Sequence record: MN850608.1
DNA from: Escherichia phage megetsur
Reading direction: 5' to 3' (one strand)
Length of the DNA stretch: 42,132 nucleotides
Positions 7,665 to 42,132 of this stretch are shown here, piece after piece. A program made the position numbers and the translations under genes. Under the pieces are notes generated by a model that saw only the letters and a list, made by a program, of their open reading frames with translations, was not told the origin of the DNA and did not search any database. Each line of letters starts with the position of its first letter. Position 1 is the first letter of the stretch.

Positions 7665-7828
7665 AGGGGCGCAGCTATCGCCGTTGCTCTTGCGGCGGCA
7701 GCCTGCTGACTGAGCAGGTAAAGGGCAAGGCCACTGGCAAAGTGCTGGTGATTTATGAATGTGAAAAGTGTGGAGTAAAGCAGTATGGAAGAACGCACGT
7801 ATCGAGCGGCACCCTTAAACCAACGTGA
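7661..7828 (+). CDS. candidate small zinc-ribbon protein (55 aa), not in the ORF track
   Basis: GTG start overlapping the upstream stop (GTGA); translation VKGRSYRRCSCGGSLL...YECEKCGVKQYGRTH carries CxC...CxxC. Confidence 0.3.
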   Translation: MKGRSYRRCSCGGSLLTEQVKGKATGKVLVIYECEKCGVKQYGRTHVSSGTLKPT

Positions 7829-7976
7829 GCAGGCTACCATCCGGGCGCAGTACCGGAAGGGTGATGCGTTCCGTGGTGCTGAGGCGCTGGCTGAGCGATT
7901 CAATGTGCCGCCTGCTGATGTGGTGGCAGTAGTGAACTTCACTTATCGTAAGGGGAAACAGAAGCATGACAAGTAA
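7785..7976 (+). CDS. hypothetical small basic protein (63 aa)
   Basis: ATG 7785 with GGAG 9 nt upstream. Confidence 0.35.
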   Translation: MEERTYRAAPLNQREQATIRAQYRKGDAFRGAEALAERFNVPPADVVAVVNFTYRKGKQKHDK

Positions 7977-8649
7977 TGCCGAAGTCAAGCGCGTGTGGGC
8001 AGAAGATATCTGCCGTCTGCTGCAATCCGAAGAACTGAACTTCGTGGTTGCCGGGGGAGGGGCAAGGGATACCGCGCTGGGTGTTGAGCCGAAGGACTAT
8101 GACATTGTGGTCTTCGGTTGGGGTAGCGACATAAGCCGTGTGGTTGGCCGACTGGACTGGCTGGACTCCAGACTGGAGGACTATGCCAAGCAGCACAACC
8201 TGCCGTACGAGTTCATGCCGAGCTACCACGACGCGAGCGAAGGCGGCGACTTCGGTTCCCGTCTGTATGGTGTGTTCAAGTTAGGCCCGGTCGATATCAT
8301 CGTGAGCAAGTGTGGCTGTTGGTCACAGGTACTGGGTGAGTTCGACTTCAACCTGAACCAGTTCTACTTCCCGTCCAGTATCCCGCGATACTCCGGGCAG
8401 TACAGCCGAGACCCCGGCGAGTTCATGGCTTACCCGTATGAGCCGAAGCTGACCGCCGACGATGTGCAGTGGTATCCGGCGCTGGCCAGTCTGGTTGGAA
8501 GCTATGACGACCTGCTGACGCTCCGTGTCTGCCGACCGGATGCCAGCCTGAGTCGCATGGCCTACATGCTGGAGAAGCATGAGAAGCTGCTGCCGTCTAT
8601 TCAGGAGTACGTGAACAATAAGCCTGACCACTTAGGTGGCCAAGCGTAG
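7966..8649 (+). CDS. Pol-beta superfamily nucleotidyltransferase, CCA-adding enzyme / poly(A) polymerase head-domain-like
   Basis: VVAGGGARDTALGVEPKDYDIVVFG matches the GGxxRD...DxD signature at the N-terminus of E. coli CCA-adding enzyme; 227 aa, head domain only. Confidence 0.6.
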   Translation: MTSNAEVKRVWAEDICRLLQSEELNFVVAGGGARDTALGVEPKDYDIVVFGWGSDISRVVGRLDWLDSRLEDYAKQHNLPYEFMPSYHDASEGGDFGSRLYGVFKLGPVDIIVSKCGCWSQVLGEFDFNLNQFYFPSSIPRYSGQYSRDPGEFMAYPYEPKLTADDVQWYPALASLVGSYDDLLTLRVCRPDASLSRMAYMLEKHEKLLPSIQEYVNNKPDHLGGQA

Positions 8650-8659
8650 CGGAGGACTG

Positions 8660-11125: not shown

Positions 11126-12021
11126 CCGCATCTGTATTGAACCGCATGAACTCCATCGTCGAACAGTATGTTGACGAGGAAGAACTTGACTTTAACGAAG
11201 CCACGTCCGGTGGTGGTAAGCTGCTGCCGGAAGGTAAGGCACTGGCGCGACTGGTTGGCTACATTGAAGTGGGGCCGAGCGTGACCAAGCAGGCACCGGA
11301 CAAACCGCCTGTCAATAAGTTCTTCCTCCAGTTCGCCCTGTGGGGCAAGGCCAAGAACGGCGAGACTTACCATGAAGTTGTCAATGGTAAGATGGTGCCG
11401 GGCAAGGTGCGCACGCAGTTCATCGCTGTGAAGAAAGACCTGAACAGCAAGTCCGGCGCTTACAAACTGTTCAAGCGTATGAACCCGGATAAGACTGCGA
11501 AGCACTTCGCGCAGCTTCTGAACCACACCTTCATCGTTCCGATTATCCACAACGAATCGGGCGAGGGTGAGAACAAGAAGGTGTACGCCAACATCGACCT
11601 TGAGAACATCATGCTCGCGGTTGACCCGGTGACTGACCAGCCGTACCCGGTGCCGGAGGTTGAGGACGAGACGCTGTTCAAGCTGTTCCTGTGGAACCGT
11701 CCGACCAAGGAAGACTGGGAATCCCTGTACATCGAAGGCAAGAACGACGATGGCAAATCCAAGAACTGGATTCAGGACAAGCTGCTGGAATCTCCTGAGT
11801 TCCCCGGCTCTCCGCTTGACCTGCTGCTGAACGGCGCTGGTGCTGGCTCGGCAATCGCTGAGCTGCCGGAGCTGGGCGACGTGGGCCAGCCGGAGGAAGT
11901 GGCTGAGGTTAAGCAGGAAGTGCAGGAGCTGGCAACGGCTGGCGCGGCTGACAAGTCGGCAGCATCCAAGCCTGAGCCGGACGTGACTGGCGATGCTGAC
12001 TTCGGCCTGCCGAGTCTGTAA
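11122..12021 (+). CDS. hypothetical protein with acidic C-terminal tail
   Basis: 299 aa; C-terminus ...DADFGLPSL loosely recalls acidic-tail ssDNA-binding proteins (speculative). Confidence 0.5.
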   Translation: MTASVLNRMNSIVEQYVDEEELDFNEATSGGGKLLPEGKALARLVGYIEVGPSVTKQAPDKPPVNKFFLQFALWGKAKNGETYHEVVNGKMVPGKVRTQFIAVKKDLNSKSGAYKLFKRMNPDKTAKHFAQLLNHTFIVPIIHNESGEGENKKVYANIDLENIMLAVDPVTDQPYPVPEVEDETLFKLFLWNRPTKEDWESLYIEGKNDDGKSKNWIQDKLLESPEFPGSPLDLLLNGAGAGSAIAELPELGDVGQPEEVAEVKQEVQELATAGAADKSAASKPEPDVTGDADFGLPSL

Positions 12022-12056
12022 CTGACAATGGCACAGGGATGTGCCGTGGAGGATAC

Positions 12057-12254
12057 ATGCGAGAGTTAGAGCCGGGCGAGGTTATCGTTTACGACGAGCC
12101 TCGCGACATGTGCATGGTAATCAAAAGCCGCAGCGAGAAAGTTGAAATGAGCTACGACATGTTCTTCACTTTGAAGAAGATGATTGAGAACATGCTGATG
12201 GAGAGAGTGAATGAGCAGATTGAAACGCTTGCTTCACAATGCCGAGGAACTTGA
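12057..12254 (+). CDS. hypothetical small protein (65 aa)
   Basis: ATG 12057 after GGAGG; hairpin 12029-12044 upstream. Confidence 0.35.
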   Translation: MRELEPGEVIVYDEPRDMCMVIKSRSEKVEMSYDMFFTLKKMIENMLMERVNEQIETLASQCRGT

Positions 12255-13185
12255 TGACCAGTTTGATGGTTACGTGTCTGGTCGTATTCTGCTGTGTGAT
12301 GCTGACTCGACAGTCTACGTCGCGGCAGCAACCACGAAGAACATCGAGACGGCGAAGACACGATTCTGTTCCGGGGTACTGACTGCCAAGTTCCTCGCCA
12401 ATGCTCAGTCAGTTCGTATCGAGTTGACCGCTGCGGAGTGTACGAAAGCTGGACGGTACAAGCTGCGCGGGGCCAAGCTGTACCAAGGCAACCGAGACAA
12501 AGACCGCAAGCCCGGTCTGGTCGAGCCGTTGCGTAAAGCAATTGGCCGGAACATGTTCAACGTTCCTGATGGTGAGGACTGGTACGTTCACCTGAACTTT
12601 GAGTTCGAGGCTGACGACACCTTAATCATGGACGCATGGACGATTGGCATTAACGATGCAGTAATCTACAGCGCGGATAAAGACCTACGCTGCTGGCCGG
12701 GCAGGTTCCTCGACCCGTACGACAACAAGGTACTGGAGCCGTGCAAAGGTGTTGGCCGTCTGTGGTGGCACGAGACCAAGAGTGACAAGTCGCTGATTGG
12801 TCATGGGCCTATCTTCTTTTGGGCGCAGATGCTGATGGGTGACAGCGCCGACAACATCGCTGGTGTCAAGAAGATTGGTAAGCAGACAGCTTACGATATG
12901 CTGGTCGATTATCAGGAGACTGATGACGAGTCGGCTGTGGCTGAGTTCGTGCTCCGTGAGTACATGGTGCGCGACCAGAACCCATGGCCAGAAGCAGTGG
13001 CGTTGTGGCTGTACCGCACGCCGACCTACTCATTCGCAGCCCACCTCAATACGCTGACCTTGAGCAAGGAGCTGCGTGTCTGGCTGCATAAGAAATTGAA
13101 TGAGGAATGGTATGCGGAAAGTGACTGGCGCGACCTTGTTGCAGATGCGGAAGAATGCGATGGGCTGTCCTTGCCCACTCTGTAA
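12211..13185 (+). CDS. 5'-3' exonuclease (T7 gene 6 / FEN family)
   Basis: ILLCDADS, QGNRDKDRKP, EADDTLIMD, YSADKDLRCWP, GDSADNIAGV align with conserved blocks of T7 gp6. Confidence 0.85.
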   Translation: MSRLKRLLHNAEELDDQFDGYVSGRILLCDADSTVYVAAATTKNIETAKTRFCSGVLTAKFLANAQSVRIELTAAECTKAGRYKLRGAKLYQGNRDKDRKPGLVEPLRKAIGRNMFNVPDGEDWYVHLNFEFEADDTLIMDAWTIGINDAVIYSADKDLRCWPGRFLDPYDNKVLEPCKGVGRLWWHETKSDKSLIGHGPIFFWAQMLMGDSADNIAGVKKIGKQTAYDMLVDYQETDDESAVAEFVLREYMVRDQNPWPEAVALWLYRTPTYSFAAHLNTLTLSKELRVWLHKKLNEEWYAESDWRDLVADAEECDGLSLPTL

Positions 13186-13492
13186 CGAGCCGATGGTAGA
13201 CCTCAAGCTCATGGTGGTTGACCACGACCATGTGAGTGGGGAGATTCGCGGTGTCATCTGCCGCTGGTGTAATGCTCAGCTCGGCAAGGTAGAGAACTCT
13301 GCCAACCGAGCGAAGCGCCAGCGCACAGTTGATGACTGGCTGGACAGCGCCATCGAGTGGCGACGTAAGCAACACACTGGTCTGATGTACCCAACGCACA
13401 AGACCGAGGCAGAGAAGAAAGCGGCGACAGCCGAGAGACGTAAGAAGGCGGCAGCCGCGAAAGCGCGAGCCTTAATCACTAAGGGGAAATGA
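13160..13492 (+). CDS. recombination endonuclease VII-like (His-Me finger) Holliday-junction resolvase
   Basis: CPCPLC...DHDH...CRWCN; start 13160 chosen for GGAAG upstream; alternative starts at 13100, 13112 and 13145. Confidence 0.7.
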   Translation: MGCPCPLCNEPMVDLKLMVVDHDHVSGEIRGVICRWCNAQLGKVENSANRAKRQRTVDDWLDSAIEWRRKQHTGLMYPTHKTEAEKKAATAERRKKAAAAKARALITKGK

Positions 13493-14616
13493 TGACCAAG
13501 TTAACTAATCACCAACTCAAAGAAGACATTGCCGAAGGGCTTGGCACCAAGGCCATTGCTGAGAAGCATGACATGACCGAGAGCGCCATTCGATACCGGA
13601 AGCGCCAGCTTGCCAAGAGCGGCTGGAGTCCTGAGCACGACATGACGAAGGAAGTGCCGGAGCCGTATGCGGTGAAGGGTACGTCCACGCTGTACGATAA
13701 GGACGGCAACGTTGTCATGCAGTGGGTGAAGACGGCACTCGACCGTGAGCAGGAGCTGGCGCTGCTGCAAGAAGCTGTCGATGCAATTAGCGAGAGCATC
13801 ACCCCGGAAGCTGCCCGACCGTACGCCGGGGGCGCGGCACCTGCTGAGCTGCTGAACCTGTTCGTGCTGACTGACTACCACCTCGGTATGCTGGCGTGGG
13901 CAGAGGAAACTGGTGACGACTGGGATATGAAGATTGCGGAAGACCTGCTGGTCAAGTGGTTCTCGGCAGCGATTGCCAGTGCGCCGCCAGCACAGGTTGC
14001 CATCTTCGGCCAGCTCGGTGACTTCCTGCACTGGGATGGGTTGGATGCAGTAACGCCATCGAGTGGGCATGTGCTTGATGCTGACACGCGATTCCAGAAA
14101 CTGGTGCGTGTGGCTATCCGGGCGCAGCGCCGCATCATTGGTATGCTGCTGGAGAAGTTCCCGCAGGTTCACGTAGTGTGTGCCGAGGGCAACCACGACA
14201 TGGCCAGCTCAATCTGGATGCGTGAGCTGCTGCATGTACTGTACGCCGACGAGCCGCGTGTCACTGTTGACCGCAGCCCTGACCCGTACTACTGCTATGA
14301 GCATGGCGAGACGGCGCTGTTCTTCCACCATGGTCACAAGCGTAAGGCAGAACAACTGGAGACTGTACTGGTCGCCAAGTTCCGCGAAGTGTATGGCCGA
14401 ACCAAACATGCGTATGCACACGTTGGCCACCTGCATCACAAGAAGGTGCTGGAGTCTGGTGTCATGATTGTCGAGCAGCACCGTACGCTGGCGGCGAAGG
14501 ATGCCTATGCCTCTCGTGGTGGCTGGCTGAGTGAGCGCAGCGCGAGCGTGATTACTTATCATGCCCGGTACGGTGAGGTCGCACGATTCACCATTAGCCC
14601 GGAGATGTTGGAGTGA
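13489..14616 (+). CDS. calcineurin-like metallophosphoesterase with N-terminal HTH-like segment
   Basis: GDFLHWDG, GNHD and GHLHH motifs; N-terminal KAIAEKHDMTESAIRYRKRQL. Confidence 0.6.
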   Translation: MMTKLTNHQLKEDIAEGLGTKAIAEKHDMTESAIRYRKRQLAKSGWSPEHDMTKEVPEPYAVKGTSTLYDKDGNVVMQWVKTALDREQELALLQEAVDAISESITPEAARPYAGGAAPAELLNLFVLTDYHLGMLAWAEETGDDWDMKIAEDLLVKWFSAAIASAPPAQVAIFGQLGDFLHWDGLDAVTPSSGHVLDADTRFQKLVRVAIRAQRRIIGMLLEKFPQVHVVCAEGNHDMASSIWMRELLHVLYADEPRVTVDRSPDPYYCYEHGETALFFHHGHKRKAEQLETVLVAKFREVYGRTKHAYAHVGHLHHKKVLESGVMIVEQHRTLAAKDAYASRGGWLSERSASVITYHARYGEVARFTISPEMLE

Positions 14617-14837
14617 CAAGAACACTGTACCAAGAAGATGTGGTGCAGCTCAAAGAGGATGGCCTTTCCATTGAGTGGGAGGCCAACACTCAGGTCGAGC
14701 TGTATAAAGATGGCACCGTCTGCATTTCGCAGGACGGTGAGGAAGTCTGGTTGCCTTGGGCATATGTCCGGGATATTATTTTCGCTCTTGAGGAAGCACA
14801 CGATGCACATGAAAGACACCGTAGTAGTAGACCTTGA
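14613..14837 (+). CDS. hypothetical acidic protein (74 aa)
   Basis: GTG start overlapping the upstream stop. Confidence 0.4.
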   Translation: MTRTLYQEDVVQLKEDGLSIEWEANTQVELYKDGTVCISQDGEEVWLPWAYVRDIIFALEEAHDAHERHRSSRP

Positions 14838-15330
14838 CGGCACGCTGGCCGATGGCCGTTGGCGTTTACACCTGCTGCCTCCACCGGAGCGTCGGCACCT
14901 TGATGAAGCGTGGGCCGAGTTCAACTTGGCTGGCGCTGACGACCCTGCGTTTCAGGACACGATTGATATTGTGAACGCTCTGGCCCTCACGTATCGCATT
15001 ATCATCCTGACCGGACGCGGAGCCGTGGCCCGTGAAGTAACCGAGCAGTGGCTCGACGAAGCTGGTGTGGTTTACGACAAACTAATCATGAGAGAGATTG
15101 GCGACTGCCGTAAAGACACAGAGATGAAGCTGGCGGCGCTGGAGGACATTGGCATTGAGAACATCGTGTGTGCTTTCGACGACCTGCCGCACATCGTTGA
15201 CTTCATGCGTGGCCTCGGCATCACGGTCTATGAAGTGACTCGCTATGAGGATAACCATGAGTATGTTCATGCCAATGCTAAATACGATGGCGCTGATTCT
15301 AAGGTCGATGGAGGTAAGGCGAATGGGTAA
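14803..15330 (+). CDS. HAD-superfamily phosphatase (polynucleotide 3'-phosphatase-like)
   Basis: DLDGTLAD motif near the N-terminus; ATG 14803 with GAGG 9 nt upstream. Confidence 0.55.
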   Translation: MHMKDTVVVDLDGTLADGRWRLHLLPPPERRHLDEAWAEFNLAGADDPAFQDTIDIVNALALTYRIIILTGRGAVAREVTEQWLDEAGVVYDKLIMREIGDCRKDTEMKLAALEDIGIENIVCAFDDLPHIVDFMRGLGITVYEVTRYEDNHEYVHANAKYDGADSKVDGGKANG

Positions 15331-15901
15331 GAAAGGTCAGAAGTTTATCTTAGACCCGGCACGCAACTGGGGTACTGGCACGCTGCTGAGCGACATTGCT
15401 GAGCAAGGTATCATCCTGACGTACGACGAACCGTACGATGTGCCGAATGACAGCCGCGATTACTACACCTGCGTGAAGGATGGCAAGACCCACACTCTGG
15501 TACTGGAGCCATTCGAGGTGAAAGAAGTTGAGACTGCATTCATCCCGGTTGACCCGTACGACCCGGCCAGTGATGTTGAGGTGGCCGTGGCCAAGAGTGC
15601 CGGGCCGGGAGGTATGAAGTTCGACGGCGGCAAGCCCCGCATGTCACTGCTGTTCGATGGCTGCCCGAATGCACTGGAGGCTGTAGCCAGCGTGCTCACC
15701 TTCGGCGCTGAGAAGTATGCAGCCCACTCGTGGCAGACTGTGCCGGAAGGTGAGGAACGCTACAAGTCAGCACTGCTCCGTCACCTGACGGCGGTGGGTA
15801 AGGGTGAGGAACTGGATAGCGAATCCAACCTGCACCATCTGGCGCACGCTGCGTGCAATGCGCTGTTCATTCTGGAACTCGAATTAAGGAAACGCAAATG
15901 A
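15323..15901 (+). CDS. hypothetical protein; C-terminal all-alpha domain possibly nucleotide pyrophosphohydrolase-like
   Basis: ATG 15323 with GGAGG 7 nt upstream; the domain assignment is from memory and tentative. Confidence 0.4.
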   Translation: MGKKGQKFILDPARNWGTGTLLSDIAEQGIILTYDEPYDVPNDSRDYYTCVKDGKTHTLVLEPFEVKEVETAFIPVDPYDPASDVEVAVAKSAGPGGMKFDGGKPRMSLLFDGCPNALEAVASVLTFGAEKYAAHSWQTVPEGEERYKSALLRHLTAVGKGEELDSESNLHHLAHAACNALFILELELRKRK

Positions 15902-16104
15902 GTGTTTTACTTTGGATTGTAGCTGTGGTATGGTTTGCCCTGTTCTCTGTTGTCTGGCTGCGTGTGACCAGTACAACAAGACACACGTTGACAGGTCTGG
16001 TGCAGCAGGATTTATCCTGTGGGTATTCTTGGCTGTCATCCCTGCTATTCTGTTTGCCTGTCTTGCGTAGGAGATTGTATGAGTCGTTATCAAAGAGCCA
16101 TTGA
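15898..16104 (+). CDS. small membrane protein (68 aa), two hydrophobic segments
   Basis: ATG 15898 with AAGGA upstream; hydrophobic LLWIVAVVWFALFSVVWL and SWLSSLLFCLPVL, then RRRL. Confidence 0.4.
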   Translation: MSVLLWIVAVVWFALFSVVWLRVTSTTRHTLTGLVQQDLSCGYSWLSSLLFCLPVLRRRLYESLSKSH

Positions 16105-16393
16105 CGACACGGTGGTTGACCATAAAGTGTGTGGTGCCTGCATGGGTAGCGGCACCTACCGTGGCATGTTGATTGGTGGGCAGGTAGTCCTGATGGATTG
16201 CGAAGCCTGCGGCGGTACGGGTACGAATGACCCGACACTGCAACATTCTGTACTGAGTGACTTAGGCCAGCGCAAACAAGCGCAGCCGGGATATGACGAG
16301 CCGGGCAAGCCATCATACGGCGTAGGTCTCGTTGAGCAGTACGCCGAAGACGGCAAGCTGATTGAGCACCTGAGCAAACAAGTTAAGGAGTAG
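16079..16393 (+). CDS. DnaJ-type zinc-finger protein (CxxCxGxG repeats)
   Basis: CGACMGSG and CEACGGTG; ATG 16079 with AGGAG upstream. Confidence 0.5.
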   Translation: MSRYQRAIDDTVVDHKVCGACMGSGTYRGMLIGGQVVLMDCEACGGTGTNDPTLQHSVLSDLGQRKQAQPGYDEPGKPSYGVGLVEQYAEDGKLIEHLSKQVKE

Positions 16394-16395
16394 TC

Positions 16396-18828
16396 GTGGA
16401 TTTACTTGCAGAGCAGATTCGACTTGAAGAAGAAGCGCGAGCCAGACACCGCGAGGGCTGGCTGGATAATATCAAAGAGGCGATGGCCAGTGGCCGCGCC
16501 GGGTCGGTGCCGTTGCTCCAGCGTATGATGGTTGAGGCTTATCCTCTGGTCGAAGCTGCGATGCAAGAAACCCTGAGCGAAACGACCCGTGGATATGGTG
16601 CGCAGTACCGGACGTACATGCGTGAGATTGGCACCAAAGCGTGTGCCTCTCTCGCACTGAGCATGGCGGTGTCCGGTGCTGCGTCGGAGCAGGCGGTACT
16701 GAGTCTGCTCAAGAGCATGGGCAAGGCACTGATGGCTGAGGTGGTGTATCTCCGGGCGAAGCAGACCGGGCCACAGCAGGCGGCGTACATGGAGCGCGTT
16801 AAGCAGGACGTGAAGAAGTCTCGCTCGAAGTCAGCGAACCACGTCTACAACAAAGCGCGTGCGTCGGCGGCGAACGTTGGGGTAGAGATTGATGTGCTGC
16901 CGCAGCGTGCGCTGATTACCATTGGCAAGCTGATGATGAAGTGCGTCGAGCCAACTGGTCTGGTGTCCACGATTCGCGTCGGCGGCAACCAGCGCCAGCG
17001 CGGTACGGCACACTTCGCACTGCACGAAGATGTGCTGGCTACGATGAACGACTGGCTGGACATGCCGCGTGCTGATGGCATGTGCTGCCCACCGCTGATT
17101 ATCCCACCGAAGCAGATTGCCCCGAACGGTCGCAGCGGTATGTGGCATTCCGATGGGCAGGCAGCGATGTACCGGGTCATGAGTCGCATGAACCACAAAG
17201 GGTATCGTGCATTGAACGTTGACCCGACCCCCGTTATAGAGCCGTGTATGATGCTCAGCAGCGTTCCGTACCGAGTTAACCCAATGGTACTGGAGTTCCT
17301 GCGAACGAACCGTACAGGCGTTATGGGGCTGCCTGTGCCACCCCGTGAGCCTACACTTCCGTTCACCATCCCCGCTGGTGTGAGCTTTGCACAGTACATC
17401 AGCAAGTTCCCACCAGAGATGCAGCAGCAGATGGATGCCGAAGCTCACGAGTACAAGGTGAAGACTCGCTTGTATTACAATGAGTTGCGTAAGTTCACGT
17501 CGCAGATGCTGGCGTTGAATGGTGCAGTCAAAGAGGCAGACAGGTATGCGCAGTACGATAGGATTTATCTCCCGACTTACGCCGATACGCGGGGCCGAAT
17601 TTATTATTCTTCGACCCTTAACCCTCAGTCTATCGACGCGGTGCGAGCGCTGCTTGAGCTTGCGGAACCAGTGGCTCTCGGAACTGAGGGGCTGTTCTGG
17701 CTCAAGGTTCATGTTGCGAATTGTTTCGGATATGACGCAACAGACTTCGACGACCGGGCGGCGTGGACGGACAAGACACTCCCCCGACTACGTGAGGCGT
17801 GCCGTCTTCCAGAGGCATTTGATTCGTTCTGGTCAGAAGCCGATAGCCCTATCAGCGCGTGGGCTGCCTCTGTTGAACTCATTCGCGCTATCGACTCAGG
17901 AAGTCCTGAGACTTATCCCTGCCGAGTGGTTACGCAATGGGACGCTACCTGTTCAGGATTACAGCACCTCAGTGCGATGCTACGAGATGAAGTTGGCGGT
18001 GCTGCTGTCAATCTTATCAATAGCGTGGGAAGAAAAGCAGACATATATCTCAAGACGGCAGCAGCGGCGATGCAGGCTCTTGAAGATAGTGAGGCGCAGT
18101 CACCGACGCAGATGGGTACGTGGCTTGTTTCAATCGGCATTGTCCGGGCGATGGCTAAGAAGCCAGTGATGACCTACGTGTACGGGGCAACCCGGCACGG
18201 TATGGTGGACTACTACTGCCTGTATCTGCGAGAGAACCGGGTCAAGCTGCCGGACGGCAAGAGCCTGCTGGAGTGTGCGCAGTTCATCGCAGAGTTCATG
18301 TGGAATGCAATCCCTCGCGTTGTGCCGAAGGCGGCAGAGCTGATGGCATGGTTGCAGGCTATCGCGGTTGAGGCGGCAGCCAACGGCGAGTACGTGGAAA
18401 TCATTGCACCATCAGGGTTGCGGGTGGTTAACCTGTATCAAGCCAGCAAGGAGACGATGCTCAACAACATCAACCTCATGGGTATCCACAGCATTAAGCT
18501 GCGCGAGTATCTGGACAAGCCGGACGGTAGGAAGTGTGCCGCTGCGATTGCTCCGAATTTCGTACACGCCATGGATGCCAGCCACATGATGAAGGTGTTG
18601 TGGGAGATGTGGAATAACGGGGTGTACATGGTGTCCATCCACGACTCGTTCGGGGTGGCGGCTGCACATGCCGGGTTACTCCACAAGGTCATTCGTGAAA
18701 AGTTCGTACAGATGTATGAGCAACATGACCCAATTCAACAACTTGCTGTACGATACAATGCTGTTGCACCTGAACGGGGCAATCTGGATATCCAGCTTGT
18801 GAAACAATCAAGCAAGTTTTTCTGCTGA
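16396..18828 (+). CDS. single-subunit DNA-dependent RNA polymerase (T7-type)
   Basis: DATCSGLQHLSAMLRDEVGGAAVNL and HDSFGV match T7 RNAP catalytic motifs; GTG start with AAGGAG upstream. Confidence 0.95.
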   Translation: MDLLAEQIRLEEEARARHREGWLDNIKEAMASGRAGSVPLLQRMMVEAYPLVEAAMQETLSETTRGYGAQYRTYMREIGTKACASLALSMAVSGAASEQAVLSLLKSMGKALMAEVVYLRAKQTGPQQAAYMERVKQDVKKSRSKSANHVYNKARASAANVGVEIDVLPQRALITIGKLMMKCVEPTGLVSTIRVGGNQRQRGTAHFALHEDVLATMNDWLDMPRADGMCCPPLIIPPKQIAPNGRSGMWHSDGQAAMYRVMSRMNHKGYRALNVDPTPVIEPCMMLSSVPYRVNPMVLEFLRTNRTGVMGLPVPPREPTLPFTIPAGVSFAQYISKFPPEMQQQMDAEAHEYKVKTRLYYNELRKFTSQMLALNGAVKEADRYAQYDRIYLPTYADTRGRIYYSSTLNPQSIDAVRALLELAEPVALGTEGLFWLKVHVANCFGYDATDFDDRAAWTDKTLPRLREACRLPEAFDSFWSEADSPISAWAASVELIRAIDSGSPETYPCRVVTQWDATCSGLQHLSAMLRDEVGGAAVNLINSVGRKADIYLKTAAAAMQALEDSEAQSPTQMGTWLVSIGIVRAMAKKPVMTYVYGATRHGMVDYYCLYLRENRVKLPDGKSLLECAQFIAEFMWNAIPRVVPKAAELMAWLQAIAVEAAANGEYVEIIAPSGLRVVNLYQASKETMLNNINLMGIHSIKLREYLDKPDGRKCAAAIAPNFVHAMDASHMMKVLWEMWNNGVYMVSIHDSFGVAAAHAGLLHKVIREKFVQMYEQHDPIQQLAVRYNAVAPERGNLDIQLVKQSSKFFC

Positions 18829-18854
18829 TAAATAGTGATATGTATCATTGACTT

Positions 18855-18877
18855 AAATGAAAGTGTCTATAGTGATA
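18855..18877 (+). promoter_or_regulatory. copy B of the conserved element ATGAAAGTGTCTATAGTGATA; candidate phage-RNAP promoter ahead of the late genes
   Basis: Exact 21-mer also present inverted at 40536-40556; contains CTATAG; followed by palindrome GTGATA-GA-TATCAC (18872-18885). Confidence 0.4.
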
Positions 18878-18938
18878 GATATCACGCTACCGGTAGCCCC
18901 GTCAGTGGCGGGGGTTGCTGCCACTAAGAGAGGATTGT

Positions 18939-19124
18939 ATGGGTAAAGAATCTCCACTTGAAAGAGTTCAGTTCACTAAAGCACAGTTAGCTCTACTGGA
19001 GAAGCACTTCGGTACATGGTCTCAGGTAGGTAAGACAGTCACTCCCGACACTAACCTACCTCTGATTAACAGAGAGGCTGGTAAGCAAGACGTTCTGGAT
19101 TTCATCAGAGAAAGAGTGATTTGA
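18939..19124 (+). CDS. hypothetical protein (61 aa)
   Basis: ATG 18939 with AGAGAGGA upstream. Confidence 0.45.
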   Translation: MGKESPLERVQFTKAQLALLEKHFGTWSQVGKTVTPDTNLPLINREAGKQDVLDFIRERVI

Positions 19125-19125
19125 A

Positions 19126-19545
19126 ATGAAAGTGTCTACTATGGGAAATACATCACACACGACGATGCCACTCGACATTCGCCGTGCTGTGGCCGAAGGC
19201 ATTCAAGCTGAGCGGCCATGGTCAGACCTATCTCCCGATGTGATTGTTGACAGCATGTATGAGGCCACCGCCTCCGGTTGCGTTGACGTTTACATCACTG
19301 ACGATGACGGCAGCCTAATGGCTGTTGCTCACATCGGCAGGTTATTCGATATTCATGTGGGCGAGATGGTGGTCGTTATGGCCTCATACGTCTGGCCCCA
19401 GTACAGAAACCGTGGAGTGATGCGTGCCATCCTCCGTGTACTCAAAGACGTGGCCCGTTCAGCGGGTGTGCGTTGGTGCGGTTACTCCCATATGGTGCGG
19501 CCTTACGTTCAGGAGTACCGCTTCATTGATTTGGAGAAACCGTAA
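19126..19545 (+). CDS. hypothetical protein, possibly GNAT-like acetyltransferase
   Basis: Degenerate acetyl-CoA-binding-like motif WPQYRNRGVMRAIL; its first 15 nt repeat the promoter-like element. Confidence 0.35.
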   Translation: MKVSTMGNTSHTTMPLDIRRAVAEGIQAERPWSDLSPDVIVDSMYEATASGCVDVYITDDDGSLMAVAHIGRLFDIHVGEMVVVMASYVWPQYRNRGVMRAILRVLKDVARSAGVRWCGYSHMVRPYVQEYRFIDLEKP

Positions 19546-19805
19546 TGGGTAGCGTAGGCAAAGTATTCAAGGGCATTGGCTCCGTCTTCGGACTGGGTAG
19601 CCAAAAGCCGCAGTACACTATCAAGACTGACCCGGCGCAGGTCAAGGCAGAAACCATGCAGGCTAACCTTGCAGCCGACCTCGCTGGTGAGAACACCCCA
19701 ACCATTCAGGCAGGTGGCCAAGTAAGCTCGGCCTCTGATACGCTGGGTGGTCGCCGCCGTCGCACCGGAACTGGTGTGGCAAGTAACCTCGGCATTGGGA
19801 GCTAA
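19545..19805 (+). CDS. hypothetical small Gly-rich protein (86 aa)
   Basis: ATG 19545 with GGAG upstream; sits just upstream of the portal gene. Confidence 0.45.
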   Translation: MGSVGKVFKGIGSVFGLGSQKPQYTIKTDPAQVKAETMQANLAADLAGENTPTIQAGGQVSSASDTLGGRRRRTGTGVASNLGIGS

Positions 19806-19807
19806 GC

Positions 19808-21373
19808 ATGACTCAAGACGCGCAGAACGTCAGCTATGAGTCTCTGTGGCAGAAGTACCGGGATAGCAACGTTGTCACGAAAGCGCGGGAGTACAGCCGC
19901 TACACACTGGCTAAGCTGGTGAGCGAGTACGACCGCAGTGACGTGGACGACATGAACCGCCAGCAGATTACTCGTGATTACCAGTCTGTCGGCGCTCTGC
20001 TCGTCAACAACCTGACCGCTCGGTTGGGTGAGTTCCTGTTCCCGGCTTCCGCACGATTCGTGAAGCTGAAATTAAACAAGGTGTCTGACCAACAGCGGCA
20101 GTCTATGTCGCAAGTGAATCAGGCGCTTATCACTATTGAGAAGGCCATCGTAGACAAAGCCAAAGAGAATGGCGGCTACGCTGACCTGCTCCAGTGCATT
20201 GCCCAACAAGCTGTGACCGGAAACGCCGCGCTGTACCGCGATATGGAAACTGGTTCGTACCGAGTGTACGGATTGGAATCCTTCGTGGTGCAGCGCGACG
20301 GTCGTGGCGTTGTGGTGGATGCTATTATCAAGGAGCGCATCCAGTGGGATTCTCTGCCGAAGGACTTTCAGAATGAGCTGAACTCCAAAGGCTTCCGCTG
20401 TGGTGGGAACAAACGCGTGTGGCTGTACACCCGCGTCCTTCGCGTTCAGAAGGACAGTGGCAATTACGGCTATGAAGTAACGCAGCAGATTGGCAACTAC
20501 CAAGGCTGCGTCTATACCCCCGGTAAAGATTACTACCCTGAAAAAGTCTGCCCATGGTTATTCCCAGTGTGGTCTTTGAAGTCTGGCGAGCATTACGGTC
20601 GCGGGATTGTCGAAGACCACGCTGGGGATTTCGCACGTCTGTCGCTCCTGTCTGAGCATTCTGCTCTGTACATGCAGGAAGCGCTGCGCGTGCTGTGGAT
20701 GCTCACTGGCTCTGGCGGCAACGTCGATGACATTGAGAGCGCAGAGACTGGGCAGGTCATTCCACTCCAGAACGGCACCACGTTGTCGGGGCTGGAGGTC
20801 GGGGATTACCAGAAAGTTCAACAGGCCCGTGACGAAATCAACCAGATTGTGCAGCGACTGGCGCAAGCCTTCATGTACACTGGTGAGTTCCGTGACTCCG
20901 AACGTACCACCGCCACCGAAGTGCAGCAGGTAGCAACCAGCGCCGAGCGTGGGCTGGGTGGGCCGTACTCAATGCAGGCTAAGACCCTCCAGATTCCTCT
21001 GGCGTATGTCCTGCTCGCGGAGATTGACGAGTCCACCGTACCAGATATCGTCGGCAACATCCTGTCGCTTCAAGTCGAAGCTGGCTTGGATGCCCTCGGT
21101 CGAAGCATTGAAGCTGAGACGCTTATCAGAGCGCTCTCCGACTCGCAGGCAGCAATGGTTGCTGTCCAGAATATTAATGGCGTTGCTAACACCATCGACC
21201 CTCAGAAAGTCCTTGAGGTTATCTTTGCCTCCAATGGTGTTGCGCTGGACGACTATCGTAAGTCGCCACAAGACTTGGCCCAAGAAGGTCAGGCCATCGA
21301 CAATGCAGCCGCTGCCGCCGCTGGCGTACAGCCGGGCGCAGTTGATGTAGCGCCTAACATCGCACAGATTTAA
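19808..21373 (+). CDS. head-tail connector (portal) protein
   Basis: 521 aa, first large gene of the structural module, followed by scaffold and capsid as in T7 gp8-gp9-gp10. Confidence 0.75.
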   Translation: MTQDAQNVSYESLWQKYRDSNVVTKAREYSRYTLAKLVSEYDRSDVDDMNRQQITRDYQSVGALLVNNLTARLGEFLFPASARFVKLKLNKVSDQQRQSMSQVNQALITIEKAIVDKAKENGGYADLLQCIAQQAVTGNAALYRDMETGSYRVYGLESFVVQRDGRGVVVDAIIKERIQWDSLPKDFQNELNSKGFRCGGNKRVWLYTRVLRVQKDSGNYGYEVTQQIGNYQGCVYTPGKDYYPEKVCPWLFPVWSLKSGEHYGRGIVEDHAGDFARLSLLSEHSALYMQEALRVLWMLTGSGGNVDDIESAETGQVIPLQNGTTLSGLEVGDYQKVQQARDEINQIVQRLAQAFMYTGEFRDSERTTATEVQQVATSAERGLGGPYSMQAKTLQIPLAYVLLAEIDESTVPDIVGNILSLQVEAGLDALGRSIEAETLIRALSDSQAAMVAVQNINGVANTIDPQKVLEVIFASNGVALDDYRKSPQDLAQEGQAIDNAAAAAAGVQPGAVDVAPNIAQI

Positions 21374-37669: not shown

Positions 37670-38349
37670 TGTCCATCATCACCATCACTGATGCACAGCG
37701 TTATGAGCTTGGCTATCGCTGCGGTATCGCAGCTAATGTGACTCAACGCTTTATCAATGATACCCGTATAGTGACGGCAGCTCAGGCTGCTGATATTGAA
37801 ACGGCTATCACCAATCTGGTGGCGGCACTTGAGGCGGCTGGCTATGCTGGTACGCCGGAAGGTTCCGCTCTGCTGGCTGACGGCGCTACTGTATCTGTGG
37901 TCAACTCCGCAGGTAACGATGCGCACAATGCCACAGCCAACGTTACTGGCACCACGCTGGATAACGTACAGCTCGTCCTGTCTACCGCAGCACTGGTAGA
38001 CCACACTGACTCAACTGAGATTCGTCGCTTCGACGGCTCTATCCTCGGCATCACCACTGCCACCGCCCGTGTAGCTGACGGCCTGCTGAGCAATGTGCGG
38101 CTCCCGGCTAACGCCGATGCAGTGCTTAACGGTTCGACTTACTCCATCCGTAACTCTGCTGGTGCTGACGCTCATAACGCCACTGCTCTCGTGGCAAGCA
38201 ACGGTGCCCTCACTGGCTTTAACCTCGCCGCTACTGTGGCCATGGTGGATAACGGTGATGCACTGGCTATCCCGGTAACTGGCACCTACGTGGATACTGT
38301 TACCTTCACTGTCGCTAGTGGTGTAATCACTGGCATCGCACTCTCTTAA
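37669..38349 (+). CDS. hypothetical Ser/Thr/Ala/Asn-rich protein with an internal ~50-aa tandem repeat
   Basis: Repeat units ...NSAGNDAHNATANVTG... and ...NSAGADAHNATALVAS...; TAATG overlap with the terminase stop. Confidence 0.5.
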   Translation: MSIITITDAQRYELGYRCGIAANVTQRFINDTRIVTAAQAADIETAITNLVAALEAAGYAGTPEGSALLADGATVSVVNSAGNDAHNATANVTGTTLDNVQLVLSTAALVDHTDSTEIRRFDGSILGITTATARVADGLLSNVRLPANADAVLNGSTYSIRNSAGADAHNATALVASNGALTGFNLAATVAMVDNGDALAIPVTGTYVDTVTFTVASGVITGIALS

Positions 38350-38360
38350 GGAGAATCTTT

Positions 38361-38555
38361 ATGGCACTTGTTGACTCTACCGCTGCTGAACGTGCGGAGT
38401 TCGTGGCAGCCTGCAATATGGCGGCCAAGTATCTGAACGTTTGGACGGAAGACTACTTCTTCGATACCACCAACACTGAGCTGGTGGTGTATTACCAAGA
38501 GTCCGTGACCCGTGTTCAAACGGCGCTCACTAACCTGACGAACGCCGCAGCGTAA
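38361..38555 (+). CDS. hypothetical protein (64 aa)
   Basis: ATG 38361 with AAGGAG upstream. Confidence 0.45.
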   Translation: MALVDSTAAERAEFVAACNMAAKYLNVWTEDYFFDTTNTELVVYYQESVTRVQTALTNLTNAAA

Positions 38556-38565
38556 GGGGTATCTC

Positions 38566-39054
38566 ATGAAACTGTCTCGGCTAATGGCCGGGGCAGTCCT
38601 ATCAGCGTCGCTGACTCTGACGGGCTGCTCCGCAACTAGCGCACTGTCTGCTGTAACTTCGGCTGTATCTCCCAATAAGCCGGAACTGACGGCTCAGGTA
38701 GGTGCAGAAAATACGAAGCAAGGTATCGGTGTGACTGCGAAACAGTCCGATGAAACCGAAGTCGGTGACGTATCTGGCAACGCGAAAGTGGATACCGCTA
38801 AGCAGGGTTCGAATGGCACATCCATCAAGGACGTATCAGGAGGCTCTGTAAACGCTTCTAAGCAGGGGTCGCAAATGACCCAAGGAAACGTACAGGCTCG
38901 CACGGTTATCGTCTCTCAGAGCGACCCACGCAGCCTCCTATGGGCTTTCGGCATGGGCCTTACGTGTATCCTTGGTTTAGTCATGTGGTTTGTACCATCT
39001 CCGTGGAAAAGGAAAGTGAAAGATGACGGAAGCAAAGAAGGAGCCATCTCCTAA
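38566..39054 (+). CDS. lipoprotein with C-terminal transmembrane anchor; candidate unimolecular spanin
   Basis: Signal peptide MKLSRLMAGAVLSASLTLTG|C with lipobox LTGC; C-terminal hydrophobic LLWAFGMGLTCILGLVMWFV followed by KRKVK. Confidence 0.5.
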   Translation: MKLSRLMAGAVLSASLTLTGCSATSALSAVTSAVSPNKPELTAQVGAENTKQGIGVTAKQSDETEVGDVSGNAKVDTAKQGSNGTSIKDVSGGSVNASKQGSQMTQGNVQARTVIVSQSDPRSLLWAFGMGLTCILGLVMWFVPSPWKRKVKDDGSKEGAIS

Positions 39055-39406
39055 CATCCACTCGCGTATGGGTGCAGTGGAGGCTCGTATGCAGACCGTA
39101 GAACTTCGACTTGACAAGCACGAGGTACAAATCGCCACTCTTGAAAAGGGCGATGCTGCAATGATTTCCAAGCTGGCTGAGAACGACCTCCGCTGGCAGA
39201 CGGTTCAACAGCAGCTCCTTGTGGTTGAGCAAATTCAGGACATTCAAAAGACTATGAGCCATATCGGTAAGTTGTTTACGGCGGCGGCTCACGCTGTCAA
39301 ATGGTGTCTCTTAACTGCATCCCTGTGTAGCGGTATCTACTTAGCAATCAAGGCTGGTGACTTAAGCTCACTGCAAGCCTTCATCACTACACTACTGGGG
39401 ATGTAA
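39023..39406 (+). CDS. coiled-coil protein with C-terminal hydrophobic segment; possible holin or lysis accessory protein
   Basis: 127 aa; C-terminal AVKWCLLTASLCSGIYLAI; sits between the lipoprotein and the endolysin. Confidence 0.4.
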   Translation: MTEAKKEPSPNIHSRMGAVEARMQTVELRLDKHEVQIATLEKGDAAMISKLAENDLRWQTVQQQLLVVEQIQDIQKTMSHIGKLFTAAAHAVKWCLLTASLCSGIYLAIKAGDLSSLQAFITTLLGM

Positions 39407-39942
39407 TGACTAACTTTGAAATCTGTATGCGGTTCACCGGGCTGGCAGAAGGTGGTTACACCAAGCTGCCCGGCGATACCGGAGGGGAAACGAATCATGG
39501 AATTAGCGACGCTCGTGATGGCAAACTGGATGGCAGAGCTTGTGGTGTCCCTACTGGGCTTGGCGGTACTATTTGCGTGCCTATCAAAGCCCTCACCAAA
39601 GCACAAGCCGAAGCAATCTATCGACGGGATTACTACGCCCCCATCCGAGGTGACGAGCTTCACCCTGCGATTGCATGTGCCGTGTTTGACTACGGTGTCA
39701 ACTCCGGTGTCTCCCGTGCGGCGAAAGCTCTACAGCGGGTATGCGGCGTTGCACAAGACGGGATTGTTGGCCCTGCTACCGTGGCAGCAGCCAAACGTCT
39801 GGAACCTCACTCCGCAGCAGCAGCCATCTGTGACCTTCGTATTGCGTTCCTAAAGGCTTCTACAGCCCCGACAGTGGTTCGCTATAGGGATGCCTTGGTT
39901 GCTCGTGCAAAACGCTGTAGCGCTTACTGTGCGACGCTGTAG
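39406..39942 (+). CDS. endolysin, glycoside hydrolase family 108-like catalytic domain with C-terminal peptidoglycan-binding domain
   Basis: LAEGGYTKLPGDTGGETNHGIS resembles the GH108 signature; C-terminal region resembles PG_binding_3; no N-terminal SAR/TM segment. Confidence 0.7.
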   Translation: MTNFEICMRFTGLAEGGYTKLPGDTGGETNHGISDARDGKLDGRACGVPTGLGGTICVPIKALTKAQAEAIYRRDYYAPIRGDELHPAIACAVFDYGVNSGVSRAAKALQRVCGVAQDGIVGPATVAAAKRLEPHSAAAAICDLRIAFLKASTAPTVVRYRDALVARAKRCSAYCATL

Positions 39943-40059
39943 GGGTATCCAAAAGCTGACGCAATGAACAGGCCGTGGGTGCAATACCCCGGCTTGAAAA
40001 TTGCACGTTTATGCTTGCCCCTCCCTCGACCCAAATGACCGCGCGTGCCCCCATAGCGT

Positions 40060-40530
40060 GTGCGCGGATTAGCCTCGCGACGTGCGCGATATTTGCTCGC
40101 GTGCGCTGCGCGGCGCGTCAAGAGGATTGCCTGCGTGCGGTATAGCTCGTGCGTGTCGCGTTTCATCGTCTGCCGTGTGGCGTGCTGTGCGCTGTCCTGC
40201 TGGCTGTGCTGTGCGGTGCTGTCCTATGGGGACGCTCTGCGCTGGCTGTGCGGTGCTGCGTGCTGCGCTCGGTCGGGCGGGTATCTGTCTCTTTTGCTCG
40301 CAAGCTCTGCGCCGTGGTGGTGCTGTGTGGTGGCGGTGGTGCTGCCGTGGTGCTGTCCTGTCTGCTGGCCTACTGTCTGCGCCGCCAGCTCTGCGCGTCA
40401 TGCTCTGCTACTGTGTCACCTGTCCTACTGCGTTCACTGGCTGCCGCCTGTCATCCTGTCGGATTCCATCCGTTGCCGTTCCGCGCTCGCTTGTTTCGGC
40501 TGCGCCGCGCTCGCTCTGCGTATCTAGCGA
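40060..40530 (+). repeat. strand-skewed G/T-rich low-complexity tract (A-poor on + strand)
   Basis: Reiterated GCTGTG, GTGGTG, CTGCGC units; three + frames and one - frame stay open, which is composition-driven and not coding. Confidence 0.7.
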
Positions 40531-40535
40531 TACTA

Positions 40536-40556
40536 TATCACTATAGACACTTTCAT
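40536..40556 (-). promoter_or_regulatory. copy D (inverted) of the 21-bp element ATGAAAGTGTCTATAGTGATA
   Basis: Exact reverse complement of 18857-18877; flank similarity extends to about 50 bp; the + strand here reads TCACTATAG, identical to T7 promoter positions -8 to +1. Confidence 0.4.
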
Positions 40557-40562
40557 AATTAT

Positions 40563-40583
40563 CTAATGATTACAGTAACTTAT
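40563..40583 (+). repeat. 21-bp direct repeat, copy 1 (CTAATGATTACAGTAACTTAT)
   Basis: Exact second copy at 40642-40662; contains palindromic core TTACAGTAA. Confidence 0.85.
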
Positions 40584-40641
40584 GACCTATCTGATAACGG
40601 TATTCTATCCAGTGTTGTGATTATCCAATCAAACTTTAATC

Positions 40642-40662
40642 CTAATGATTACAGTAACTTAT
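40642..40662 (+). repeat. 21-bp direct repeat, copy 2
   Basis: Identical to 40563-40583, 79 bp downstream. Confidence 0.85.
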
Positions 40663-40683
40663 CACTTTTCTTGAAAATAATAC

Positions 40684-40713
40684 TTGCAAACTGTTTTGGT
40701 TATGTGCTGTAAT
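40684..40713 (+). promoter_or_regulatory. sigma70-type promoter P0 (TTGCAA-N18-TGcTGTAAT)
   Basis: -35 TTGCAA at 40684-40689, extended -10 TGCTGTAAT at 40705-40713. Confidence 0.5.
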
Positions 40714-40785
40714 TCATCACGTCTAAAGGCACTAGCCCAGTAGACACAGACAGACGGTAGCATCGCTCTTTAACAATCTGGTGTG

Positions 40786-40814
40786 TTGACAAGGCAAGCT
40801 CACTATGCTGTAAT
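40786..40814 (+). promoter_or_regulatory. sigma70-type early promoter P1 (TTGACA-N17-TGcTGTAAT)
   Basis: Consensus -35 TTGACA, 17-nt spacer, extended -10 TGCTGTAAT. Confidence 0.6.
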
Positions 40815-40922
40815 GCTTCCAGTCAGCCAGACAAGCCAAATAGTGATGGATAAACACGTTAACACCCGCGTAGGCTAACTGGTACGGTTTAATTAACTCA
40901 GAACGGGCGCTGATTAAATCGG

Positions 40923-40951
40923 TTGACAGGATGAAACGAGTATGCTGTAAT
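40923..40951 (+). promoter_or_regulatory. sigma70-type early promoter P2 (TTGACA-N17-TGcTGTAAT)
   Basis: Same architecture as P1. Confidence 0.6.
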
Positions 40952-41002
40952 ACACACCAGATTGACAGGGCAGCAAGCCAGTCAGTCAGAAGTAAAAAGT
41001 AG

Positions 41003-41031
41003 TTGACACGCTGAATACGATGTGATGTAAT
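41003..41031 (+). promoter_or_regulatory. sigma70-type early promoter P3 (TTGACA-N17-TGaTGTAAT)
   Basis: Same architecture as P1 and P2. Confidence 0.6.
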
Positions 41032-41039
41032 CAGCACCG

Positions 41040-41463
41040 AGTTGAAAGGTTGCAAAACAACCTGCTCTGAGTGAACGTAAACAGGCCACGTAGTGTCTCG
41101 GCCTCATGGGTATCCGGCGCAGCTAGGAACTGGTGAGGGCACCGCCGAAAGGCAATAGGGGTAGCGCCCGGTGCGATGGGAACGGAGAAGCGCGATAGAC
41201 GCAGCGCAGTATCAGCACAATCCCGAACGTCTTATAAGGCGCGGAGTGAAGCGGGTAGGTAGGCAAGCTGGAAACGGTGAGCCGGACTGCTGGAGGACTC
41301 CTGAGAGTGGATGCAGACAATATCCACGGCGCGAAATGGGCGGGGCGATTTTTCAGGGTAGTGAATCCGACAAGCCAATCAATGCCAACGAGTGCAGACT
41401 GTACGGCGCGTCACAATGGGTTCACTATCCACCTGAAAATAGCCAACAACTGGAGAAATAACT
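41040..41463 (+). other. long purine-rich non-coding leader between the early promoters and the first early gene
   Basis: About 420 nt with no RBS-preceded ORF; G/A-rich on the + strand; small hairpin GGTTG-CAAAA-CAACC at 41043-41057. Confidence 0.5.
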
Positions 41464-41853
41464 ATGTACCGTATCTATGCAAGCGCATATCGTCCGAATA
41501 ACGCTGAATGTGTTAATCTGGCGCTTCATTGCAAGGCACTGCGAACGGTGCAGGATATGTTCGGAGTGATTCCGGTCACGCTGACAGGCAAGTTCGACAA
41601 TCAGTATGAGTTGAGCATGGTATTTCCTGTCGATGGAATCTACGAAATCAGGAAGGCGGTATCGCTTTTCTGTAAGGTTCTTGAACAGGACTGCATCATG
41701 GTAGTGACCAAAGATGATGATGCAATCTTCATGGATTCACCGTATCCGGGCAAGCCTGCTGGCAAGCTGGTCAGCAAAACAGGCGAGCAGATGGAAGCCG
41801 GGCAGCATACCGCTTGGACTTATGACGGTGAACTGTTTTGGGTAGTGGAGTAA
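41464..41853 (+). CDS. hypothetical early protein (129 aa), first gene after the promoter cluster
   Basis: ATG 41464 with GGAG 9 nt upstream. Confidence 0.55.
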   Translation: MYRIYASAYRPNNAECVNLALHCKALRTVQDMFGVIPVTLTGKFDNQYELSMVFPVDGIYEIRKAVSLFCKVLEQDCIMVVTKDDDAIFMDSPYPGKPAGKLVSKTGEQMEAGQHTAWTYDGELFWVVE

Positions 41854-42000
41854 GGGGAATGACTATGTTCACTGCACTGTGTGTTATAGCGGCGGCCTGC
41901 TGGGTCATTGACCAGCGCCTGAGCCGTCGCCGTGGCTGATAGCCTATAGCGTCTTGCGAGGCGCTATGTGAAATCAACCAACCTGACAAGGGGTAACATC

Positions 42001-42132
42001 ATGACTACTGCAATCAAATACACCAGCTTCAAAGACGCTGCCGCTCTGGACAAGGCTATTGAGTCTACCGTCAAGAAGGCGCACTCACTCCGTAACGAGA
42101 TTCAGAACGTTGCGGTCGGTATCATCCTGCAC
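42001..42132 (+). CDS. hypothetical early protein, 3'-truncated at the window edge
   Basis: ATG 42001 with AAGGGG upstream; frame open to the end of the window. Confidence 0.4.
   Translation, partial: MTTAIKYTSFKDAAALDKAIESTVKKAHSLRNEIQNVAVGIILH

Follow-up and report, generated by a model that had tools for sequence, protein, structure and literature searches.

Four tandem, co-oriented sites near the left end of Bonnellvirus genomes as a likely early promoter cluster for host sigma-70 RNA polymerase

The window studied here, i.e., the whole analysed stretch of 42,132 nt from Escherichia phage megetsur (MN850608.1), has a phiKMV-like gene order with all large open reading frames on the + strand. 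Beyond the endolysin gene, it carries the inferred left end of the genome with the terminal repeat, a leftward candidate motif for the phage's own RNA polymerase, four promoter-like sites that we call P1 to P4, a long untranslated leader, and the first early gene (Table 1). Relatives annotate the counterpart of this first gene as an anti-restriction S-adenosylmethionine (S-AdoMet) lyase (SAMase), a function of the T3 type. Antisense inside the same gene (41689-41728, - strand), Rfam reports a manganese riboswitch at 20.4 bits, compared to a gathering score of 45, with E = 0.0054; this match is most likely due to chance.

Table 1. Features of the left-end region and the phage RNA polymerase gene (positions in the window)
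Feature	Position	Strand	Details
P1, putative promoter	40684..40713	+	-35 TTGCAA 40684-40689; 18-nt spacer; TGC 40705-40707; -10 TGTAAT 40708-40713
P2, putative promoter	40786..40814	+	-35 TTGACA 40786-40791; 17-nt spacer; TGC; -10 TGTAAT 40809-40814
P3, putative promoter	40923..40951	+	-35 TTGACA 40923-40928; 17-nt spacer; TGC; -10 TGTAAT 40946-40951
P4, putative promoter	41003..41031	+	-35 TTGACA 41003-41008; 17-nt spacer; TGA; -10 TGTAAT 41026-41031
Orphan TTGACA	40962..40967	+	overlaps the 3' arm of the 13-nt inverted repeat; conserved in relatives
Structured leader RNA	41032..41463	+	~430 nt, untranslated; between P4 and the S-AdoMet lyase start codon
Long hairpin	41344-41444	+	~100 nt, 3' domain of the leader; ends just before the Shine-Dalgarno GGAG
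Inverted repeat I1	40774..40786 (5' arm) / 40952-40964 (partner)	+	13 nt, perfect; brackets P2 and P3
Candidate phage-RNA-polymerase promoter motif ATGAAAGTGTCTATAGTGATA	40536..40556	-	leftward, upstream of P1; 21-mer TATCACTATAGACACTTTCAT on the + strand
Phage single-subunit RNA polymerase	16396-18828	+	PF00940, E = 6e-83
Inferred physical left end (TCGACCC...) and direct terminal repeat	~40026..40285	.	from alignment with J8-65; right boundary approximate
First early gene, S-AdoMet lyase (SAMase, anti-restriction)	41464..41853	+	129 aa; Pfam PF23780, E = 2e-24

The physical left end was placed with the help of the record of phage J8-65, which was deposited with its termini and has a 259-nt direct terminal repeat annotated at 1-259 and 40723-40981. 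Positions 39930-40290 align both with the left end of J8-65 (TCGACCCGAAGG...) and with the unique sequence in front of its right repeat, which makes the window a circularly permuted assembly containing a single repeat copy. The left end inferred in this way falls 84 nt past the endolysin stop codon and puts the four sites at +659 to +1006, i.e., about 660-1010 nt inside the genome and shortly after the terminal repeat. The corresponding -10 hexamers of J8-65 are found at 710, 816, 952, and 1031. An earlier note on this DNA had taken the cluster to identify the left end of the genome, which is right for the left-end region, while the end itself lies ~660 nt further upstream, near 40026. The tract from 40026 to 40520, spanning the terminal repeat and the next 250 nt, is A-poor and CTG-rich with short degenerate repeats and an AT skew of -0.19. 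Three open reading frames starting at 40060, 40082, and 40149 (154-187 aa), which some relatives annotate as hypothetical proteins, are probably artefacts of this composition.

The sites themselves are just as the earlier note had described them, i.e., four + strand combinations of TTGACA or TTGCAA with a 17- to 18-nt spacer and TGnTGTAAT, and they are unique in the window. The -35 hexamers of P2, P3, and P4 match TTGACA at 6/6 positions and that of P1 at 4/6, all spacers are within 17 +/- 1 nt, and each site has the TG of an extended -10 element at -15/-14. The common -10 hexamer TGTAAT is a 5/6 match to TATAAT and keeps the T at -7 in all copies, including those of relatives. A wider context, ATG(C/T)TGTAAT, had been thought common to the four sites; it holds for P2 and P3 (ATGCTGTAAT) only, with P1 reading GTGCTGTAAT and P4 reading GTGATGTAAT.

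Searching both strands of the 42,132 nt for TTG[AC][AC]A-N17/18-TGTAAT returned 4 matches, all on the + strand and all within one 348-nt stretch. In 100 first-order Markov simulations, this composite occurred 0.03 times on average and at most once even when TG was not required, and never when it was (0), and we rejected a chance origin of the four sites on this basis. P2, P3, and P4 are also the only 11/12 matches to TTGACA-N16-18-TATAAT on either strand of the whole window, and TGNTGTAAT alone is found 9 times versus 0.91 expected. Canonical promoter-like sites, on the other hand, show no excess in positions 1-20000 (12 versus 10.7 expected), and no other host-type promoter or strong terminator stood out among the early and middle genes up to that of the phage RNA polymerase. 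The 22 nt 5' of the -35 elements have a mean A+T content of 59%, compared to 44% for the genome; upstream of P1 the value is 77%, and an A-rich tract (AGTAAAAAGTAG) lies immediately 5' of P4.

Positions 40300-42132 of the window match 19 phage records, the best of which is that of Escherichia phage mellemsur (95.9% identity); those with a classification belong to the genus Bonnellvirus of the Autographiviridae. We compared 15 Bonnellvirus genomes and the window with phage LIMEzero (genus Waewaevirus) and two uncultivated viral contigs that had been found via a conserved motif of the leader. With the window included, 14 of 16 Bonnellvirus genomes have the complete set of four sites, the exceptions being Lidtsur, which has three, and smaasur, where the -10 of P4 reads TGAAAT; related sites also exist in LIMEzero and in both contigs. 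The tally comprises 52 copies with at least 5/6 matches in the -35 element and 16 copies of P1, i.e., 68 copies, all of which have TGTAAT except P4 of smaasur. Among the 52, TTGACA is found in 48, the spacer measures 17 nt in 48 and 18 nt in 4, and TGn is present in 50. In IMG/VR, TTGACA-N14-TGNTGTAAT and the TCTAAT control each gave at least 120 matches.

The way in which these sites vary is informative. Across 16 genomes, the spacer of P1 (17 or 18 nt) takes 10 different forms, while TGCTGTAAT is invariant and the -35 element changes only once, to TTGCCA; variable columns amount to 9 of 13 in the spacer versus 1 of 14 in the motif (Fisher p = 0.0013). P4 shows the same pattern even more clearly (12/13 versus 1/14; Fisher p = 1e-5), with 7 distinct spacers and A, T, or G as the n of TGn, while TG and the hexamers are fixed apart from that one variable motif column. 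The hexamers, TGC, and 17-nt spacing of P2 are identical in 16/16 Bonnellvirus genomes, and its spacer differs in only two of them, by one base in HHU8 and through a fusion with P3 in Lidtsur. Because the spacers of P2 and P3 are conserved as well, promoter function cannot be told apart from other constraints, e.g., on RNA structure in transcripts from P1, by the conservation of these two sites alone. At the position of P4, contig L024 instead has TTGACA-18-TGcAACTAT, a different and canonical -10 at the same place, and we therefore argue that the conserved property is promoter function.

The striking deviation is the base at -11, which is G rather than the expected A in each of the four sites and throughout the 68 related copies, although one transition would turn TGTAAT into TATAAT. 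The earlier note had called extended -10 elements, correctly as far as TG is concerned, and had overlooked the missing A. Together with T-7, A-11 is the most conserved base of the -10 element and nucleates promoter melting; other bases at this position generally reduce activity strongly, and an A-11T change lowered the affinity for fork-junction DNA 300-1000-fold even with an extended -10 (PMC3753650). A sigma-70 scan of 38000-42132 that demanded A at position 2 of the -10 returned 0 sites, which is not evidence of absence because all four sites have G there. The alternative -10 registers CTGTAA, GTAATN, and TAATNN (spacers of 16, 18, and 19-20 nt) were also considered and rejected: none combines A at position 2 with T at position 6, and the best reaches 2/6 matches to TATAAT. 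A literature search for TGTAAT or A-11G promoters retrieved only computational assignments or unrelated tuberculosis mutations. Since A-11 is a very strong statistical feature of sigma-70 promoters and not an absolute one, we regard membership of P1-P4 in this class as probable but atypical.

A fifth TTGACA (40962-40967) lacks any -10-like hexamer 16-19 nt downstream, just as had been noted before. It is followed by CCAGTCAGTCAGA, which shares the same 13-mer with CCAGTCAGCCAGA downstream of P2, and is probably the remnant of a P2-like copy. This observation touches on the question of whether the cluster arose by duplication, as previously proposed from the common -10 context. Within the window, the copies resemble each other by 70% (P2 and P3) or 63% (P2 and P4) over 30 nt, about half of them belonging to the fixed motif; this is close to what the shared motif alone yields, so that duplication is barely supported there. 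The proposal gains from other observations: In RZ4 (L013, 1893 and 2214), the P4 spacer CTGATTCGCTTTGTG is identical to the genome's own P1 spacer, and in Lidtsur (L017, 1615-1650), P2 and P3 are fused to leave three promoters. Exchange between copies is better supported because of this spacer identity, the Lidtsur fusion, and the 13-mer shared by the orphan and P2. In addition, ~86 nt are inserted between P1 and P2 of BHUENT7 (L006, 492-681), and LIMEzero as well as contig L024 have a whole open reading frame inserted upstream of the last promoter. Judging from these alignments, the number and content of the predicted promoters vary among relatives by recombination.

Downstream of P4, the leader is conserved in Bonnellvirus, LIMEzero, and the two uncultivated contigs. 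It is non-coding, and relatives differ in it by indels of 25, 11, and 16-17 nt. An alignment of 15 sequences from two genera supports 126 predicted pairs, of which 94.6% are paired compared to 33-37% when partners are slid by 1-3 columns. Compensatory double changes occur at 36 pairs versus 2-11 in the slid controls, and 0 of 500 shuffles reached the observed values. The fold of the single sequence agrees with the consensus structure and has an MFE z-score of -2.65. Besides the long hairpin of the 3' domain, a short stem closes the leader from 5' to 3' by pairing its first transcribed bases with CUG/CAACUGG just 5' of GGAG. Rfam returned no family for this leader, even at E <= 10, with only sub-threshold matches in the region. 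Searches for distant copies were similarly unproductive: one search gave 8 matches, 2 of them unrelated coding sequences, a metagenome search gave 52 matches of which one was real, and genome and viral searches retrieved only chance matches inside coding sequence. Given its position, the leader would be transcribed from all four promoters.

Other elements surround or overlap the cluster. The inverted repeat I1 exists in two allelic forms among relatives, GGTGTGT/ACACACC or GGAGTGTAT/ATACGCTCC, and its arms covary in 10/10 genomes scored by script, arm recombinants included, with the rest looking alike by eye. This covariation suggests that I1 is selected as a long-range stem, be it in transcripts from P1 or in single-stranded DNA. 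A second inverted repeat (I2, 40906-40920 / 41024-41038) shows variation in its first arm that is not matched in the second. Further upstream, the A+T-rich segment that separates P1 from the candidate leftward promoter contains two exact 20-nt direct repeats (TAATGATTACAGTAACTTAT) at 40564-40583 and 40643-40662, 79 nt apart. The window has no other copies, and relatives largely retain the two repeats, which might serve to bind a protein or belong to an origin. The leftward 21-mer TATCACTATAGACACTTTCAT is ~520 nt away from the inferred left end. Its core ATGAAAGTGTCTA has 6 copies in the window versus 0.5 expected, at 4676, 18857, 19126, 32246, and 38566 on the + strand and at 40544-40556 on the - strand. 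With two of them (18857 and 19126) directly after the phage RNA polymerase gene, this motif is probably the promoter of that enzyme.

We consider it likely that P1-P4 are four tandem, co-oriented promoters for the host sigma-70 holoenzyme and form the early cluster of a Bonnellvirus. Promoter function is assigned because of the observed motif, its uniqueness, its pattern of conservation, its position, and its orientation; binding, transcription starts, and strength would follow from these features. The same evidence, i.e., uniqueness, conservation, the left-end position, the context of the first gene, and the layout of phage LUZ19 discussed below, agrees with the earlier idea of a rightward early cluster parallel to that of T7. 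We go no further than "likely" because no alternative register restores A-11 with an acceptable spacer. In the scenario that we favor, the left end of the linear genome would enter the cell first and expose the cluster just beyond the terminal repeat. Host polymerase would then bind via the TTGACA -35 element, the 17- to 18-nt spacer, the extended -10 TG, and TGTAAT, and would initiate 6-8 nt downstream of the -10 reading rightward, with predicted starts near 40720 (P1), 40821 (P2), 40958 (P3), and 41038-41040 (P4). Transcripts would traverse the structured leader of 430 nt and the anti-restriction S-AdoMet lyase gene and continue into the genes that follow, and transcription may also help to pull the DNA into the cell as in T7.

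The main challenge to this reading comes from the G at -11. It is conceivable, though we think it unlikely, that the sites bind host polymerase without being simple constitutive promoters, either because the 9-mer TG(C/A)TGTAAT doubles as an operator for a protein of phage or host or because G-11 makes initiation dependent on an accessory factor or a particular condition, so that the G is kept for regulation. Its invariance in 68 copies in spite of the single transition to TATAAT fits this idea, as do the normally critical role of A-11 and its retention in the validated LUZ19 analogues. In a similar cluster, moreover, promoter P006 of LUZ19 has no sigma-70 motif and was inactive in reporters, and the authors suggested that extra factors may be needed (PMC10914365). 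On the other hand, no candidate binding protein was identified, the G may be offset by TG, optimal spacing, and an otherwise 11/12 consensus, and the lineage of L024 swapped one copy for a canonical -10, so that the G is not obligatory there. We do not think that the G abolishes promoter activity. It might rather tune the promoters, e.g., through short-lived and easily shut-off open complexes or through avoidance of an escape-limited full consensus. More speculatively, and on balance doubtfully, the invariant G could be selected and not merely tolerated, and the sites could represent a distinct functional class of phage early promoter, with unstable open complexes for shut-off at hand-over or with TG(C/A)TGTAAT serving also as operator for an early phage protein. 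Such promoters might act together with the newly described structured leader, which in turn might process or regulate the SAM-degrading first gene.

Constraints unrelated to host polymerase, such as a structured RNA made from an upstream start or sites for a replication or packaging protein, seem a very improbable reason for the conservation of the motifs. They would find some backing in the covarying inverted repeat of 13-15 bp that brackets P2 and P3, the two 20-nt direct repeats, the candidate phage-polymerase motif upstream, and the conservation of P2 and P3 through their spacers. However, they would not give four two-block TTGACA-17-TGnT.TAAT motifs with free spacer and free n, and strand, position, and downstream gene all fit promoters. 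Finally, we find it scarcely credible that P1-P4 are promoters for the phage's own single-subunit RNA polymerase, even though such an enzyme (PF00940) is encoded and T7 has a phage promoter near its left end. We rejected this idea on motif distribution: The composite motif is confined to 40684-41031, while promoters of phage polymerases recur before middle and late genes, and it is ATGAAAGTGTCTA that shows the expected distribution instead with two copies just after the polymerase gene. P1-P4 are also bipartite with a variable spacer, while these enzymes use contiguous motifs of ~20 bp.

Reading P1-P4 as host promoters helps to fill in the regulatory map of Bonnellvirus, previously without annotation, with a left end, an early cluster, a leader RNA, and a candidate phage-polymerase motif, in an arrangement that mirrors the mapped architecture of LUZ19. 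For this phage family, such promoters are no surprise. What could make them useful is that a natural promoter family that is near-perfect except for the base deemed most essential would be a clean system for studying how -35 element, TG, and spacing compensate for a missing A-11. Similarly, a conserved structured leader without an Rfam family ahead of an anti-restriction SAM lyase could repay experiments. Bonnellvirus records carry no promoter annotation, and the Bonnellvirus papers that we searched do not mention promoters. The recognition of an early promoter cluster in this genus is thus new, while the kind of element is already known because the LUZ19 cluster has been mapped, counterparts in LIMEzero have been annotated, and a host-promoter rule has been published for Autographivirinae.

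Among known systems, T7 is the classical precedent. Its A1, A2, and A3 promoters for E. coli RNA polymerase at the left end start transcription at about 500, 625, and 750, and their -10 hexamers (GATACT, TAAGAT, and TACGAT) all have A-11 and T-7. Like P1-P4, they are strong-looking tandem rightward sigma-70 promoters spaced ~100-140 nt apart in the first kilobase after the terminal repeat, and they are followed by a leader that includes a long hairpin and by a first gene with anti-restriction function, given that gene 0.3 of T7 is anti-restriction and that of T3 encodes a SAMase. By analogy only, the leader hairpin of the window recalls R0.3, the RNase III site that precedes gene 0.3 in T7. 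The differences are that T7 has three copies instead of four, no sequence homology to the window, and A-11/T-7 instead of TGTAAT with TG; the window, in turn, has a much longer leader (~430 nt) and its phage polymerase gene 17 kb downstream and not among the early genes. As in the extended -10 class of sigma-70 promoters (TGnTATAAT), TG at -15/-14 is fixed and n is free in P1-P4, but members of that class usually have a weak -35, whereas here the -35 is consensus as well and A-11 is missing.

The closest annotated counterparts are those of LIMEzero (FR751545), whose record lists three features as "putative Pantoea specific promoter". Two of them, both with TGTAAT, correspond to P1 (801-847, TTGTCA-17-TGTAAT) and P4 (1399-1445, TTGACG-17-TGaTGTAAT), and the same structured leader and first gene follow. 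Unlike in the window, the counterpart of P2 is degenerate and an extra open reading frame separates the promoters, which are predictions only in LIMEzero.

As a general rule, Autographivirinae use host promoters at the leftmost part of their genomes to begin transcription (PMC3765740). The best experimental parallel is the phiKMV-like Pseudomonas phage LUZ19, where five strong promoters (P002-P006) were located ahead of the first gene by ONT-cappable-seq. Four of these are sigma-70-like and gave reporter activity in E. coli (PMC10914365). In the LUZ19 record, the interval from the terminal repeat to gp0.1 carries annotations for three sigma-70 promoters. Despite a different host and no sequence similarity, LUZ19 and the window share a polymerase gene that closes the DNA-metabolism block and a cluster of TTGACA-17 architecture placed after the terminal repeat and before the first gene. 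The promoters of the LUZ19 polymerase, i.e., P001 (antisense and upstream of the cluster) and P007-P009 (two right after the polymerase gene), follow the same layout as the ATGAAAGTGTCTA copies. The -10 hexamers of LUZ19 (TAGAGT, TAGAGT, TACAGT, and TAACAT) depart from consensus in the opposite way to TGTAAT: they retain A-11 and T-7, are weak in the middle, and lack the TG.
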